From positions 704,001-768,000 of the forward strand of contig OY970332.1 in assembly GCA_963717435.1 (NCBI GenBank): DNA of 64,000 nucleotides, given 5' to 3'. A program made the position numbers. This DNA comes from an uncultured bacterium (GTDB taxonomy: Bacteria; Babelota; Babeliae; Babelales; Babelaceae). This document shows positions 42,501 through 48,500 of this stretch, piece by piece (within the stretch, counting starts at the first letter, position 1; every line of letters begins with the position of its first letter).

Positions 42501-45500
42501 TTTTTCACAACTTATATTTTTTGCCCATCTTTGTCCGGCATCTGTTTTTATAAAATCATGCAAATTAAATAAATGGGGTAAAGAATTAATCTGTTGATAA
42601 GAAAATTTGGGGCTTGGTTTAATATTAATCTTTGCTTCTTCGCTGAAATCACTGGCTTTTAAAAGCTGGTTCGTTTGATCTTGGCTCTCCATCGCCCTAA
42701 TAATTGGATTAATTAATATTAGACAGGAAAATATTAAATTGTTAATCAAAGTTGTTTTAATCATGCAAGCCTTCAAGGTGTTTTTTTTGATTTTTTAAAG
42801 TAAACTATTTAAGTATACAGGATTTTCAAACTTTTCAGATAGTATATTATGCTACTTCAAGATTTTTTTAAAAATATAAGTTCTCCCGAGTTTGTTTTTG
42901 CGCAAGAAGCCAAAATTTTTTATGGCCCGGAGTTCCCGTCTCTTTTTTTTACGATCTTAAAAGATAAATTAAAACAACAAACTAACAACACAATATATTT
43001 TCTTGATATAAAAAATTTAGAACAAAGCAGCATAAAATCGACGCTAGAGACAAGTTTTTTGGGCAGCAGCTCTGTCTATTGGCTCGGTGATTTAACGCTG
43101 CTAAGTGAGCAAGATACTAAGTTCTGGCTAAATTATTTTAAAGATTATTCTGGCCCCCACACGGTTTTATTTTTCATAAGTGATACAAATCCCCAACTTC
43201 AGCAGTTATTACAAAATAAATCAAAAGAACAAATATTTGTTAAATTAGAACCAACTATAGATAAAAACTCATATATAAACTTTTATAAGTTTTTCTTAAA
43301 TCAAAACATAGACCCAAGTTTTGTTGAAAATCTCTTTTCTGCTCGTTCTTTAATTCCACTCGATATAGCGTCTATATTATTCAATTATCAATCTCTGCTT
43401 GGAAAAAAGCACGAGGCTTTTTTTTCTGACTGGGCAGACAAAATCGTTATCAGCGAAAAATCTCTTTTTACATTAAGTCAGCATTTTTTTGCAAAAAATA
43501 ATACACAGTTTTTTGAGTTATGGGCCCAAGTCAAAGACACTTACCCTGACGAATTCTGGGTCGCATATTGGTCAGATCAACTCTGGAATGCGATATTCTA
43601 TATCCAATACATGCGCGCTAATATGACCAAAGAAGCAAAATATATTAACCGTCTGCCATTTGCGTTTATCCAAAAAGACTGGAAAAAATGCGCCTTTTAT
43701 GAACTTCAAACTGCACACGAGTTTCTGTATCAAATAGATTATGGCCTAAAAAACGGCACCGCCACCAATGGCATAGACTTGTGGCTATTCAAATATTTTA
43801 ATAATCAGTTTTTGTCCAAAAATTAATTTAGCGTTTTAGCTACGGTGAATAAAAATTCCCCTAAATATTGATTTTTGGTTCTCCTATAAATTTATAATAT
43901 CTTATGAGTTTATAGGAGCAAAGGGCGATTACAGCTGATAATACCAAAAAACGGAGATAATATGAGTTTAAGAAAGATCAAAAATAATTTTATTTTGATA
44001 ATTATTTTAATAGCCTTTTCGGGAAATTATAGTTTGCCTATGCAGCAAGAAGGTGCATCGAAGCGTGGGCCACGGGTTAATTTGGGCGACGAAATTGGTT
44101 CTTGGCTCAACGCCCGAGACACTCTCGGCGGTGATTATAAATTTGTAACTCAACTTGGAACCGATGGCGATATAGATCAAAACAAGATTGTGGGGAATCT
44201 TTATTTGATTGGCTCAAGCGACCCATCTTTGCGGTCTGAAGATATCGAAGAGTTAATTATAGCTTTAAAGCAAGACTGCGTCACTGAAATCACTGGCAAT
44301 TTTTATATAGATTTGAATCGATTTGATCACAAGTGCTTTGCTCCCGGAACAAAAATAGCAGAATCTCAAAAACCAGATAATGCTTTTTTTGAGTTAATAA
44401 CATTCTGGATGCAGTTATTTGAACAATATAATATTAAAGTAAATGGCGAAATTGAGATAAAAAAACTTGAGCTTGATGGTTATAAAATAAAAAGTGGCGA
44501 AAAAAATTGGGATATTAATATTCTGGCAAAACATGAATCTGAAAGTCTTGATGAGATAATAAATAACGCAGATAAGAATTCTGAAATATTGTTATAACTG
44601 CTTCTAGTTATAATTATTTTCTAGCAAAGCTGTTTTTGAATCTCTTTGGCAAGGGCATTGCTAATAAATTCAGCTCGTTCCTGAGTTTCTTCTTCAACCA
44701 TAATTCGCAGGTAATTTTCTGTGCCCGAATATCTGACCAATAACCGACCATCTTGAAGTTGTGTCTTGCTTAAGTCTATAAGTTGAGAGATGGGCGGCGC
44801 ATCGAGCGCCAGCTTAATTTTTACTGGGATATTAAGCAAAACCTGTGGGTATTTCTTGAATGTCTCTAGATTATAATTTTTTGTTAAAATTATTGTTTCT
44901 AAGATTTTTAAGGCAGCTAAGATCCCGTCCCCCATATATGACAAATTTTTTAAAATTATATGGCCAGATTGTTCGCCGCCGATAAGTAAATTTTCTTTGT
45001 TTAGCGTCTCAGAGATATATTTGTCGCCAACGGCTGTTCTTATTAACTCTATATTTTGCTTTTTAAGAAATATCTCAAGCCCCCGATTTGTCATTACTGT
45101 CCCGACTATCTTCTCTATATTTTTATAATCTGGGTTATTAATTAATAGTGACAAAATATCGTCGCCGTCTTTAATTTCACCAAATCTGTTAGCAACTACA
45201 ACTCTGTCCCCATCACCATCAAATGCAAATCCCAAATCGCAGTTATTATCTAGAATAACTTTTTTTAGGCTATCAAGTTCTAGCGCACCGCAATTAAGAT
45301 TTATATTTTGGCCGTCTGGCTTATTATTAACAATAAATAAATTTGCGCCCAGCTTTTCAAATATCTTTGGTGCAACTTTATACGTCGCGCCGTTTGCGCA
45401 ATCTAATGCTATTTTTAAGTTATTTAAATTAAGATTTTTAAATTTTTCTAAAATTTTTTCTATATATAAATTTTCTGCTTCAGGATAAAATTCTTCTTGT

Positions 45501-48500
45501 CCCAGGTTGTCGTAGGAAAAGTTTGCCCCGCCATAGCTTGCCAGAGCGGCGGCCGGGTATATTCTTGAGATCTCAAGTTCATCTTGTAAGTTTAATTTGC
45601 CGTAAGCAAGATCTACAATCTTAATGCCATTATCCTGCCAAGGGTTGTGTGATGCAGAGATTATTATAGCGATATCAAAATTATTTTGGGAAATTAGCGC
45701 AACTGCAGGTGTGGGCAAAACTTGCGCGTCATAAATATAAACTGGATTTAAGAGTAACCCAGATTTTAAAGCAGCTTTGACAAAGCTGCATGAAACACGC
45801 GTGTCGTGCACTATTAATATTTTTACTTTAGTTCTCTCGCCCGGCATCCCTCGATACATTCTACTTCGCTCTTCAAGCTGCGTAGAACACTCGGGACGAG
45901 CGGGCATGGGGTATTTTGCTGTGGCCCATTTGGCGATCGCATCACCAAGTTTTGGCAGATTTTGTAAAACAAATAAATTATTGCCAACTTTATCTCTTAC
46001 GCCGTCTGTTCCAAAGATGTTGGTGCTGTTCTGCATACTTTGCTTTCCACGCTCACTATAATATTTGATGGAATATGATTTACAAGTTTAATAGAAGCAG
46101 GAAGAAGAATGTCTTGTTCAGTGATCTGCAGCGCAGAATGGTTTTCTGTTAACTTTTGTGCGTCAACATGTACCGCTAAATTATTTATATCAAGATTTCG
46201 TAAATTTTCACGCTTTGCAACAAGATTTATCTTTATACTTTCTGGCCCCTTGCAGATTATATTATCATTTGTGTTATAAAAGCACAACGGAACCTCTAGC
46301 CAAATATTTTTCAAGCTTGAACCGGAAAATATTGTCCAGATAAAAACTCCCATAAAAAGCGCTATTATTTTATCTAAGATCTTGTTGTTGATATTTTTTA
46401 TTTTCGATAACTTTACCATAAACTTCGCCTTCTTCTTTATTTATATCCTGATTTATATTTTTCCCAACATAACTATTCAAAAACGAGGCAACTTGCGGTG
46501 CTGTTAAGTTTTCATAAATTTTATTATTTGCGATTATTTCAAATTTTCTTGCCTCAGGCAAAACTTTTATAATTATAGCATCGGTGTTTGTTGTTGCGAT
46601 TAACGCATCAGCCTCAAAGTTTTGTAGATCTTCAGAAAAGCTCCATTTTGCGTTTGGGGCAACTAGTATGCCGTCTTGGTTGAGCCAAATATTTTCAATA
46701 TTTTTATTTTTCAAAACAAGTTCGAAGATCTCTTTTGAAAACAGCGCATTAATTATCCAGTCAGCTTGCAAAAGCGTTGAAAGCGAGTCTCTTTGTTCGA
46801 TAATAAATAACACTTTTTGATTTTGGTTAACAGCATATAGTGCTGATTTGACAAGTTCTTCAACCCAGTTGTATCTTGACTGTTTTTCTATGTCTAATCT
46901 TGTTGATACAACAAAGTTTTTCTGCAAACTCTTTTGGTGCATTAAAATAAACACTGTTAAAATTATTGGGGAACCGAAAAGTAATATAGAGCTTAAGATC
47001 TGTAGATTTAAATAGTGTGAAATTATAAAACTTGCGCAATAAATATAAAATGGCAAAGAAAGATTTTTCTCTGTGTCTTTTTTTAACCAAGATGCAAAGT
47101 AATATACTATTGTTGATATTGAGATTATCTCGAGCGCATCGCGCCAATCTGTGAGATTAAATAAACTTAAATATGACATGTACTACTCTCTTTTTTAATT
47201 ACCAAAAAGCTTTTTTAATTTTTGATAGTTTATACACAAAATTGGGGATTAGTATAGTGTAACTAAATTGAGTTTTTTGTTTCAAGTGCCATTATTATAT
47301 CATCAATATAATAATTATCGTCAATTTTTACCCAATTAGTAAATCTGCCCTGCTCAACAAAATTAAACTTGTTGTACAAATTAATTGCGCGAGTATTTGA
47401 AGCCCTGACATGCAATAAAATTTTTTCTACAATATCTGATTTTTTTGCCCAAGAAATTAAATTTTCAAGCAAACGAGTACCGATTCCTTTACTTTGATGT
47501 CCTGTATGAACAACAATTGTAAGATGTGCTACATGTCTAAGGTTTTTGGGTGTCATGCACTCAAGAAAAGCATGTCCAATTATTTTATTATTTAATTCTG
47601 CTACCAGATATTTTCCATTTGTTTCGTCAAGAAGCTTTTTTATTGTTTCTTTAAAGCGTTCTTTAGGCAATTCTTCTGGCTGAGAAATAAGAAATCCAGG
47701 TTCTTTGGCAATTATCTGCTCAGCTTGTGCAAGTTGTTCGGCATCTTCGATCTTTGCAGCGCGAATAATTATTTTTTTCATAGCTTACTTTCTAAAAATA
47801 AAATTAATAAATCTAGTTTTATAAAGTTTCCCACTTATTAAATAATCTAACAATATTTGGTTCTTGGGTGGGCAGGTCGTTAATATTCTTACGTACCCAT
47901 CTTAGCTCTTTAGATTCAGAATTTTGCACAAAATCTTCGTTGCTATTAACTCGTAACAAAAATCTTATGTCATAATGATAATGTGCTTTGACGTTTTTGT
48001 AATCAGGCACCAAGTGAATATCGATATCGAAAATTTTGTCGCTGACTGGGGTAATATTATTTATCCCAGATTCTTCTTGCGCTTCTTTAATGGCAACCTC
48101 TAGCACATTAGGGTTGCCATCGCAATGACCACCAACTTGGACCCAAATATCAAGCTTGTTATGGTGCATAAGCAACGCTTTGGACATGTCTTTGCTTAAT
48201 AACCAGGCTGAAGCTGTGATGTGCCCAATTTCCAAAGATCGTTCAAAACAGTTTGAATATTTATTAACAAAATTTATAATATCCTGCTTATTTTTTACTT
48301 CTGATTCTGTAGGCTTATATTCTTGTAATAAGTTTAATAAGTTATTTCGAATCATTATTTTGACTGTTTTCTGTGTTATTCGTGTCTATAAGCTCCCTAG
48401 CATTATCTCTTCCCTGTTGTCTTTCAGGAAAGACACTATGATTTTGTCGGTAACGTTCAACGTATCTCATAAATTTTATATGCGCTTCTAGTTCTTCGGG

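Follow-up and report, generated by a model that had tools for sequence, protein, structure and literature searches.

A probably inactive CdaA homologue inherited with CdaR rather than with GlmM in Babelota

A homologue of the diadenylate cyclase CdaA that has lost its catalytic motifs, here termed CdaA*, is encoded in the window (the whole stretch of 64,000 nt that was analysed), and within the phylum it is inherited with CdaR rather than with GlmM. Since this apparently dead CdaA is kept under purifying selection, and since no active DAC domain was found in 201 genomes of the phylum, its role is most likely independent of c-di-AMP, as had been proposed in the preliminary description of the locus. 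Because CdaA* is inherited with CdaR, presumably exposed at the cell surface, and not with GlmM, the pair probably still has a messenger-independent function at the cell envelope.

Organization of the locus

The coordinates in Table 1 are positions in the window, and all features lie on the minus strand. The reading frames overlap, cdaA* with cdaR by 50 nt and cdaR with glmM by 40 nt; promoter and terminator scans returned nothing specific. The order cdaA-x-glmM described earlier is confirmed in the window, where the gene "x" can now be assigned as cdaR, and glmM was present, in the order cdaA-cdaR-glmM, in 19 of the first 30 loci examined.

Table 1. Features of the cdaA*-cdaR-glmM locus
Feature	Position	Strand	Evidence
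cdaA* (CdaA homologue, predicted catalytically dead, 269 aa)	46370..47179	-	ORF, profile, PDB, Foldseek, hhalign
CdaA*, three predicted N-terminal membrane helices (residues 12-80) with near-invariant, family-specific E17, W31, L32, D35, L40 and P71	46940..47146	-	
CdaA*, juxtamembrane motif HQxxLQ(K/R)NF (residues 81-89), in place of canonical FQPELRRAL	46913..46939	-	
CdaA*, predicted cytoplasmic DAC-fold domain (residues 103-240)	46460..46873	-	profile, model, Foldseek
CdaA*, Q119, equivalent in position to Arg126 of B. subtilis CdaA (required for GlmM binding)	46823..46825	-	
CdaA*, former TPLHDGA loop (residues 160-164), replaced and 3 residues shorter in the window protein	46688..46702	-	
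CdaA*, former RHR motif (residues 188-190), FEA in the window protein; family consensus W-K-Q	46610..46618	-	
cdaR (140 aa), one predicted N-terminal membrane helix (hydropathy peak at residues 18-36) and a single YbbR domain (about residues 33-126)	45997..46419	-	
glmM-type phosphoglucosamine mutase (471 aa)	44621..46036	-	best family TIGR01455
In-frame insertion in GlmM, about 25 aa, copy of a dispersed hairpin repeat (side feature)	45833..45907	-	

CdaA* is a full-length CdaA homologue with a replaced active site

The CdaA family model TIGR00159 matches the window protein with E = 2e-7, at 30.5 bits far below its cut-off of 188.8, and Pfam CdaA_N also remains below cut-off (E = 9e-4; 12 of 39 family members match at E 0.1). 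A search of the PDB with the single sequence gave a chance match only; a profile of 39 homologues retrieved exclusively DAC-domain proteins (17 of 17), with full-length CdaA (9g69) at E = 8e-10, and hhalign aligned the family profile to 11 canonical CdaA proteins with 99.0% probability over 242 columns. The AlphaFold model (pLDDT 86.5) contains the membrane helices, and its top Foldseek matches are CdaA/DacM (E = 2.5e-9, TM 0.73 by target), with CdaA, DacA or DacM structures in nearly all rows among the matches listed. Hydropathy exceeds 1.6 only in helix 3 (2.43, compared to 1.19 for helix 1 and 1.47 for the best window of helix 2 into 3), so the assignment of helices 1 and 2 rests on the profile and the model. 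A search of the ESM Atlas yielded two clusters without a name at 0.93; in the second of them, 36% of the members carry DAC.

With CdaA/DacA of B. subtilis, L. monocytogenes, S. aureus and L. lactis (TIGR00159; PDB 6huw, 4rv7, 6gyw, 9g69) the protein shares the three membrane helices, the juxtamembrane helix, the DAC fold, the C-terminal tail and the position in the operon, and the structural positions E135, D215 and G234 are mostly kept. Unlike in these proteins, however, TPLHDGA, GTRHR and SEETG are replaced, HQxxLQKNF stands for FQPELRRAL, the Arg that binds GlmM is not kept, and no c-di-AMP machinery was found beside CdaA*. DGA or RHR is found at the catalytic place in none of 238 distinct homologues, whereas RHR is present in 72 of 72 canonical CdaA proteins; the four DGA strings and the one RHR string that occur among the 238 all lie outside the catalytic place. 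Residues vary or have been exchanged at the metal-binding positions H170, D171 and E224 and at those of RHR (His is not among the eight commonest residues in the H170 column), G172 is mostly Lys, and the SEE motif is likewise replaced in the window protein. Judging from these sequences, CdaA* is probably catalytically inactive. Pfam DAC (PF02457) scored over cut-off in none of the 201 genomes, its 11 weak matches all lying inside cdaA*, and TIGR00159 gave no match at E 1e-12 and none over cut-off. Our data thus agree with the preliminary description that the protein is a full-length CdaA homologue, that both catalytic motifs are absent and, as far as the 201 genomes go, that the phylum has no active DAC.

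CdaA* and CdaR are inherited together

The product of the gene following cdaA* is identified as CdaR by the match of its family profile to PDB 5hqh (E = 2e-7) and by Foldseek, in which 5hqh, 4qdy and 3lyw come on top; Pfam YbbR was found in 14 of 34 family members, the window protein not being among those 14. In common with known CdaR/YbbR proteins (Lmo2119, PDB 5hqh, PF07949) it has the N-terminal membrane helix, the YbbR fold and the position directly downstream of cdaA, and of 119 canonical loci, 54 contain an ORF matched by the profile from the phylum, which among the matches listed is the gene after cdaA. The difference is one of size, with about 125-140 aa and one YbbR domain here, as opposed to 228-510 aa in the best-scoring canonical CdaR.

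Our sample of 201 genomes, which is other than that of the preliminary description, contains cdaA* in 145 cases (the raw count was 146, with one spurious weak match in each search), including apparently split frames, with two profile matches each, in G006, G113 and G145. CdaR is present in 144 of these 145 genomes, in none of the 56 without cdaA*, and never alone; the sole exception (G146) is a fragment at a contig end in an assembly of 180 contigs. Among 85 distinct loci, cdaR follows cdaA* directly in 81, and in the remaining four, which belong to genus g4, the two are separated by a stretch of about 5.5 kb with other genes, and cdaR still adjoins glmM. Joint loss, the extent of which is inflated by the ready deletion of overlapping neighbours, is seen in G068, G110 and G184, where a trpS-like flanking gene abuts glmM and both genes of the pair are gone, and G027 and G135 have one unrelated ORF at the place of the pair. 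No cdaA* or cdaR profile match was found beside glmM in the 27 glmM loci that were read, of the 53 pair-less genomes with glmM. A divergent pair hidden in the pair-less lineages was sought with a 148-row profile and rejected, with nothing in four of five genomes and a 55-column match with stops in the fifth (G192); the weak cdaA* match in G068 also contains stops and was discarded likewise.

Retention "across Babelota", as first described, is an overstatement, since one supported branch of six families and a further family (f11) lack the pair; of 20 families, seven, with 46 genomes, yielded no genuine match by protein or profile. The branching was taken from a quick GlmM tree (63 rows, partial proteins excluded), on which loss and ancestral absence in the six-family branch are indistinguishable. 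The single locus retrieved by a search for related loci with one protein bears the title Pseudomonadota; its GlmM clusters with the rows of the phylum.

c-di-AMP machinery and candidate output partners

Neither a c-di-AMP riboswitch nor a PgpH-type domain was found, with five genomes tested for each, and DHHA1 in the four cdaA* genomes tested was confined to RecJ-sized frames of 578-585 aa and one frame of 878 aa. Among 20 KtrA proteins from cdaA* genomes, none has Arg at the position that was read as binding c-di-AMP; this Arg is kept in four of six KtrA proteins of pair-less, DAC-less genomes, and is therefore a weak marker.

As to output partners, the pair is not followed in co-occurrence by KtrA (148/201 genomes), MurA (189/201) or class A PBP (180/201), nor by FtsW/RodA and MreB, each found in five of five genomes. 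All 10 genomes that have neither murA nor class A PBP also lack the pair, which favors a role at the envelope; these genomes represent few independent events, with three in the branch already without the pair. Most pair-less genomes still make a wall, as murA is present in 45 of the 56, and the pair is therefore dispensable for wall synthesis.

Shift of conservation and proposed function

In CdaA* the active site has lost conservation, and the membrane helices and the juxtamembrane helix have gained it. Columns identical in at least 85% of sequences number 12 of 69 in the membrane region, compared to 3 of 69 in canonical CdaA, and 8 of 138 in the DAC region, compared to 36 of 138, the latter figure being inflated by 9 columns through selection of the canonical set by the pattern TPLHDGAVI. 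The most conserved stretch is HQxxLQ(K/R)NF, with H81 in 192 of 192 sequences. The DAC domain has near-invariant residues of its own, W105, W165 (169 of 192), N176 (172), W179 (152) and W188 (145), which occur in 0 of 72 canonical CdaA proteins; the window protein deviates, with F at 188 and a shortened loop. In the three least-diverged within-genus pairs dN/dS (NG86) is 0.035-0.04 for the membrane part and 0.08-0.13 for the DAC part.

We tentatively favor the interpretation that CdaA* and CdaR constitute an envelope-sensing or scaffold complex with an output other than c-di-AMP, directed to a protein partner. Binding of CdaR to CdaA is known from B. subtilis and L. monocytogenes, where sensing of the wall by CdaR has been proposed, according to PMC10117814; for CdaA* (residues 1-243) and CdaR (residues 1-130) the best score of a complex prediction was 0.10, relative to a mark of 0.32, which speaks in neither direction as to binding. 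The two proteins would form an inner-membrane complex inherited from the cdaA-cdaR-glmM operon, from which the cyclase chemistry and the surface for control of GlmM would have been discarded, and of which the membrane part would have been retained and re-tuned. CdaR would show its YbbR domain to the periplasm and the wall, CdaA* would relay or anchor this contact via its three membrane helices together with the HQxxLQKNF helix, and the dead DAC domain, its synthesis of c-di-AMP gone, would act as a cytoplasmic module for docking of the protein partner or for oligomerisation.

Alternatively, CdaA* may serve as an anchor that stabilises or positions CdaR, with the DAC domain holding an oligomer and no relay, while the work is done by the periplasmic YbbR domain or by a joint membrane bundle with a structural role. 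The strongest conservation in the membrane and juxtamembrane part, the lowest dN/dS in the membrane part and the failure to find a co-varying output partner are in its favor, but we consider it unlikely, as the whole DAC fold is kept under purifying selection with the new near-invariant residues, and the canonical dimer-contact positions N161 and L169 given in PMC8573169 are not kept. A new use of the former ATP site, for binding of a different small molecule (e.g. in sensing of ATP/ADP or another nucleotide) or for other chemistry under the control of CdaR, is also rather improbable. The new conserved residues W165, N176, W179 and W188 do take the place of the old site lining, and W179 falls at L188, the backbone of which binds adenine in CdaA according to PMC11066881, a contact that can outlast a change of side chain; however, the losses at the metal-binding and RHR positions and the Lys at G172 argue against such a use, as do the position of the stacking Tyr187, which is mostly T/S, and the F188 and shorter loop of the window protein.

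GlmM is a neighbour and not a required partner

The GlmM-type mutase of the window has TIGR01455 as its best family (377.6 bits, the cut-off of 447.55 being reached in none of the 201 genomes), with SASHN, DGDGDR and GEQSGH intact. The earlier idea that CdaA* is probably tied to GlmM, i.e. kept to bind, localise or regulate it, draws on the common gene order, on the co-occurrence of a GlmM-grade match in 109 of the 145 cdaA* genomes and on the solved structures of CdaA-GlmM complexes (PMC8573169, PMC11686323), but it now appears very unlikely. The glmM gene is missing from both operon and genome in 33 of the 145 genomes with the pair kept (19 genera, 4 families, 8 single-contig; G092, G146 and G157 were excluded because of ambiguous contig ends), and it is retained in 53 of the 56 genomes without the pair. 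Most of the 33 loci read cdaA*-cdaR-DUF502, and these genomes have no more than a single weaker mutase match each. In five of five single-contig genomes of this kind the sole mutase is an orthologue of the PMM/PGM paralogue (41-47% identity, versus 24-28% to GlmM), which rules out a relocated glmM in these five; in the other 28 the absence of glmM is read from score class and locus. Loss of the hexosamine pathway was rejected as the background of glmM loss in three of three glmM-less genomes tested, where glmS and glmU are present.

The contact positions are not kept either. Arg126 of B. subtilis CdaA is required for GlmM binding (PMC8573169), and of 192 CdaA* sequences, 12 have Arg and 51 have Lys at its position, which is occupied by Arg in only 31 of 72 canonical CdaA proteins. 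In GlmM, an acidic residue stands at position 151 in 2 of 45 sequences here, versus 27 of 41 in canonical operons, and at position 195 in 0 of 45 versus 30 of 41, and all three acidic contacts (D151/E154/D195) are present in 0 of 45 versus 22 of 41, although mutants of these residues barely changed CdaA binding according to PMC8573169. Relative to the CdaA-GlmM inhibitory complex (PDB 7olh, 7ojs, 9g69; PMC8573169), the contacts thus appear lost on both sides, and there would be no cyclase activity left to inhibit. Purifying selection looks unchanged after the loss of glmM, where measurable, with pooled median dN/dS for the membrane and DAC parts of 0.14 and 0.25 with glmM and 0.14 and 0.22 without it; most pairs in this comparison are non-independent with dS > 1, and 38 of the 38 usable glmM-less pairs for the DAC part come from one genus.

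A decaying vestige held only by overlap with its neighbours is largely refuted and highly improbable: the identity of about 30% between homologues, the absence from 56 of 201 genomes and the split frames would suit it, but dN/dS is well under 1 in all pairs that could be used (at most 0.51 for cdaA*), the gene is kept after glmM loss and apart from the operon in g4, at least 348 clusters (50% identity) match at E 1e-30 or better, and there are new invariant residues. Hardly credible is a still active cyclase with non-canonical residues, which would agree with the intact fold but would have a metal site with no conserved acidic or His residue, in a phylum where no c-di-AMP phosphodiesterase or riboswitch was found in the genomes tested.

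Relation to other degenerate signalling domains

Degenerate second-messenger domains are exemplified by the inactive GGDEF domain of GdpP (PMC13508791) and by inactivated GGDEF/EAL domains that act as c-di-GMP receptors (PMC12448109). Like these, CdaA* would represent a nucleotide-cyclase fold that is dead as an enzyme and retained for regulation or binding; they act in a live signalling network, whereas here the messenger system has apparently disappeared and the membrane partner is kept. What CdaR senses and why CdaA is membrane-bound are stated as open questions in PMC10117814, PMC13508791 and PMC11686323, and neither is easily approached in organisms for which c-di-AMP is essential. A lineage living inside protists appears to have dropped the messenger and, repeatedly, GlmM, and CdaA* and a minimal one-domain CdaR are still under selection. 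This suggests that the pair does something for which neither is required, and it provides a minimal pair and a few conserved residues for experimental work. It is conceivable, if speculative, that CdaA-CdaR is an envelope sensor separable from c-di-AMP that was rewired in these intracellular bacteria, with the dead DAC domain signalling directly to a protein or, through a Trp-lined pocket, recognising a new ligand; the pair would then be a natural separation-of-function variant exposing what CdaR senses and the non-catalytic role of CdaA in all bacteria. We found no published account of a dead CdaA in Babelota/Dependentiae; the survey of DAC architectures by Galperin 2023 (PMC10127676) or its supplements may mention such proteins. 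The synteny cdaA-cdaR-glmM alone implies neither c-di-AMP signalling nor a CdaA-GlmM complex.

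Identity of the three genes

The genes for CdaA* (the CdaA homolog without the catalytic motifs), CdaR and a GlmM-type phosphohexomutase overlap one another, all on the minus strand of the window (see the table). As a single sequence, CdaA* matches the CdaA models weakly (TIGR00159, E 2e-7; CdaA_N, E 9e-4). Once relatives are included, its link to CdaA is firm: all 17 PDB matches of a 39-row family profile are DAC-domain proteins, with full-length CdaA matched over 254 positions, profile-profile comparison with 11 canonical (active-type) CdaA sequences gives 99.0% over 242 columns, and the best structure matches of the AlphaFold model (pLDDT 86.5) are CdaA/DacM.

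The gene between cdaA* and glmM is cdaR. The profile of its product matches the Listeria monocytogenes CdaR domain (5hqh, E 2e-7) and four other YbbR structures in the PDB, YbbR structures head the Foldseek rows of its model (pLDDT 91), and Pfam YbbR is found in 14 of 34 family members. The window protein has one membrane helix and one YbbR domain, and CdaR of this phylum is shorter than the canonical ones picked up by its profile (228-510 aa). The window mutase has intact catalytic loops and scores under the family cut-off, as in all 201 genomes of the Babelota set. In L234 and L251-L255 (family f6, genus g24) GlmM is strongly divergent, with the N-terminal FGTDG motif replaced, an acidic insertion ahead of the catalytic Ser loop and E(T/A)CGH as the sugar loop; these genomes gave no match for a second mutase at E 1e-40.

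Features in and around the operon (window coordinates)
Feature	Position	Strand	Remark
780-aa protein, then two similar 141/137-aa ORFs	36563-40018	+	
Short duplicated C-terminal piece	39349-39582		
Hairpin repeat, second window position	36389-36442		
211-aa ORF converging on glmM	43962-44597	+	signal-like N-terminus
glmM-type phosphohexomutase	44621-46036	-	471 aa
Hairpin repeat copy inside glmM	45833-45907		
cdaR	45997-46419	-	140-aa protein
cdaA*	46370-47179	-	269-aa membrane protein
UvrD/PcrA helicase	52034-54418	-	long Ser-rich stretch near C-terminus, outside Pfam domains

Co-inheritance with CdaR

Among the 201 genomes cdaA* is found in 145, and CdaR in 144 of these and never alone. cdaR lies directly 3' of cdaA* in 81 of 85 loci, the exceptions belonging to genus g4, where inserted genes separate the two and cdaR remains with glmM. 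After exclusion of three ambiguous genomes, 33 of the 145 (19 genera, 4 families; 8 single-contig genomes) have no glmM after cdaR, and 109 have a GlmM-grade match; one genus contains both states (G020 without glmM, G023 with it). The glmM-less loci mostly read cdaA*-cdaR-DUF502, with at most one weaker mutase match per genome, which is a PMM/PGM paralog in all five genomes examined and which probably supplies glucosamine-1-phosphate; glmS and glmU are kept in all three genomes examined. murA is also kept in the glmM-less genomes (L072-L081, L216-L233 and L235; 33 genomes). The median dN/dS of the DAC part is 0.22 without glmM (all from genus g21) and 0.25 with it, so that selection on this part looks the same in both states. 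glmM is kept in 53 of the 56 genomes lacking the cdaA*-cdaR pair, in several of which both genes are gone from between trpS and glmM. Judged by co-inheritance, the probable partner of CdaA* is CdaR, not GlmM, contrary to the tie to GlmM suggested in the preliminary description.

Shifted conservation and possible role

We aligned 192 homologs with 72 canonical CdaA sequences, numbered on the Bacillus protein L119, whose R126, D171 and R203-R205 agree with the published B. subtilis numbering. In the membrane region, identity of at least 85% is reached by 12 of 69 columns of the CdaA* family vs 3 of 69 in canonical CdaA, and in the DAC region by 8 of 138 vs 36 of 138 (9 of them forced by the selection pattern); judging from this alignment, conservation has moved from the DAC region to the membrane region. 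The new near-invariant residues D35, H81, Q86, N88 and W105 each occur in 0 of the 72 canonical sequences.

In Bacillota the contact of CdaR with CdaA runs via membrane helices. That the membrane part was kept together with a minimal CdaR, while catalysis and GlmM were dropped, is most simply explained if the two proteins form an envelope complex; we tentatively propose such a complex, in which the cytoplasmic domain of CdaA* would dock another protein. In Bacillota CdaR binds CdaA and has been proposed to be a wall sensor, according to the accessible text of PMC10117814. Docking would have a precedent, since canonical DacA of S. mutans has further membrane partners including FtsH, SecA and Pbp1a (accessible text of PMC13289029); co-occurrence tests identified no output partner of CdaA*-CdaR.

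That CdaA* serves as an anchor only is a less likely reading. Slightly less likely still is the repurposing of the former active site as a ligand pocket, around which W165, N176, W179 and W188 are near-invariant, each in 0 of 72 canonical sequences.

A role of CdaA* as a tether for GlmM is improbable. R126 of CdaA is required for GlmM binding, according to the accessible text of PMC8573169; this position is Arg in 12 of 192 CdaA* homologs, although as a marker of GlmM binding it is limited, since no more than 31 of the 72 canonical sequences have Arg there. All three acidic partner residues of GlmM occur in 0 of 45 phylum GlmM vs 22 of 41 canonical operons, and mutants of these residues had little effect (same text of PMC8573169). 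The loss of contact residues agrees with independence from GlmM. CdaA* falls outside both active CdaA and the CdaA-GlmM module, from which its family is clearly derived. A literature search, whose coverage left out the main review of DAC architectures, found no account of this dead CdaA family; what is added here is a tally of glmM losses and the disappearance of the contact residues.

That CdaA* is a vestige is very unlikely, as dN/dS (NG86, with many of the pairs non-independent and close to saturation) is below 1 in all usable within-genus pairs. In the three least-diverged pairs the membrane part has values of 0.035-0.04 and the DAC part values of 0.08-0.13, and the gene is not decaying. 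Two separate cdaA* profile matches were found in each of G006 (C1:22187-22945), G113 (C1:1301035-1301793) and G145 (C2:302220-303101), which may reflect a frameshift, internal deletion or assembly error; a 249-aa ORF is still readable in G006 and G113.

Active site and c-di-AMP system

In the CdaA* family, positions H170, D171, G172 and A173 are each replaced or variable, the RHR position reads W-K-Q in the consensus, and SEE is lost. The reported loss of the catalytic motifs is borne out by 238 distinct homologs, none with DGA or RHR at its proper place, and the reported lack of an active DAC in the phylum holds for the 201 genomes, with Pfam DAC over cut-off (all 11 weak matches being the cdaA* gene) and TIGR00159 at E 1e-12 both found in none. 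CdaA* is predicted to be catalytically inactive, and activity through non-canonical residues is most improbable. No c-di-AMP riboswitch or PgpH-type domain was found in five genomes each, and no GdpP- or NrnA-sized DHHA1 protein in four cdaA* genomes.

KtrA is present in 148 of the 201 genomes, and TrkA_C had no match in the window's own genome. The KtrA residue that aligns with Arg in the B. subtilis protein was taken as the counterpart of the c-di-AMP-binding R169 of KtrC and could be parsed in 26 of 33 loci (L213-L215, L257-L286). It is Arg in 0 of 20 KtrA from cdaA* genomes (Tyr/Phe in 17) and in 4 of 6 from pair-less genomes (Arg/Lys in 5; f11, f12), although neither group yielded a DAC; as these 4 come from DAC-less genomes, the Arg is a weak c-di-AMP marker.

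Distribution and cell wall

The claim that a dead CdaA is kept across Babelota stands for 145 of 201 genomes and fails for 7 of 20 families (46 genomes), from which the pair is absent. On a quick GlmM tree the rows from six of these form one branch (SH-aLRT 100), the long-branched f11 is unplaced, and sporadic losses in f1 and f3 sit among pair-bearing rows; because its basal nodes are not resolved, the tree does not separate loss from ancestral absence. A gene of about 215 aa occupies the usual place of the pair in 15 of 20 loci read from pair-less families, and was LysE in the one scanned.

With murA in 189 and class A PBP in 180 of 201 genomes, members of the phylum mostly make a wall. All 10 genomes without both also lack the pair, but they amount to few independent events, and murA is retained in most of the genomes without the pair. 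G079 (single contig, 95% complete), from the same family as the genome of the window, has no match for cdaA*, cdaR, murA, class A PBP or a mutase at E 1e-40, and would be wall-less. The operon cdaA*-cdaR-glmM-DUF502 is also found, complete, in L256 (CAYZEO010000007.1:2294-8094), whose record bears the title 'uncultured Pseudomonadota bacterium'; its GlmM groups with that of this phylum, and the label is probably a loose title or misbinning rather than evidence of transfer.

Neighboring features

The window GlmM carries about 25 extra residues, inserted in frame as a copy of a hairpin-containing repeat of about 60 bp. This repeat has 67 matches in the genome at E 1e-4, of which 20 fall within ORFs of at least 200 aa, and resembles the Rickettsia palindromic elements; the Ser-rich stretch of the UvrD/PcrA helicase is possibly a further repeat insertion. 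The match of the 211-aa ORF to the D-Ala-D-Ala carboxypeptidase S13 family is partial, covering profile positions 55-145 of 444. In most relatives its place beside glmM is taken by the DUF502 gene, which tblastn did not find in the window's own genome. The 780-aa protein, the two ORFs after it and the short duplicated C-terminal piece together resemble in their order a polymorphic toxin with immunity genes.
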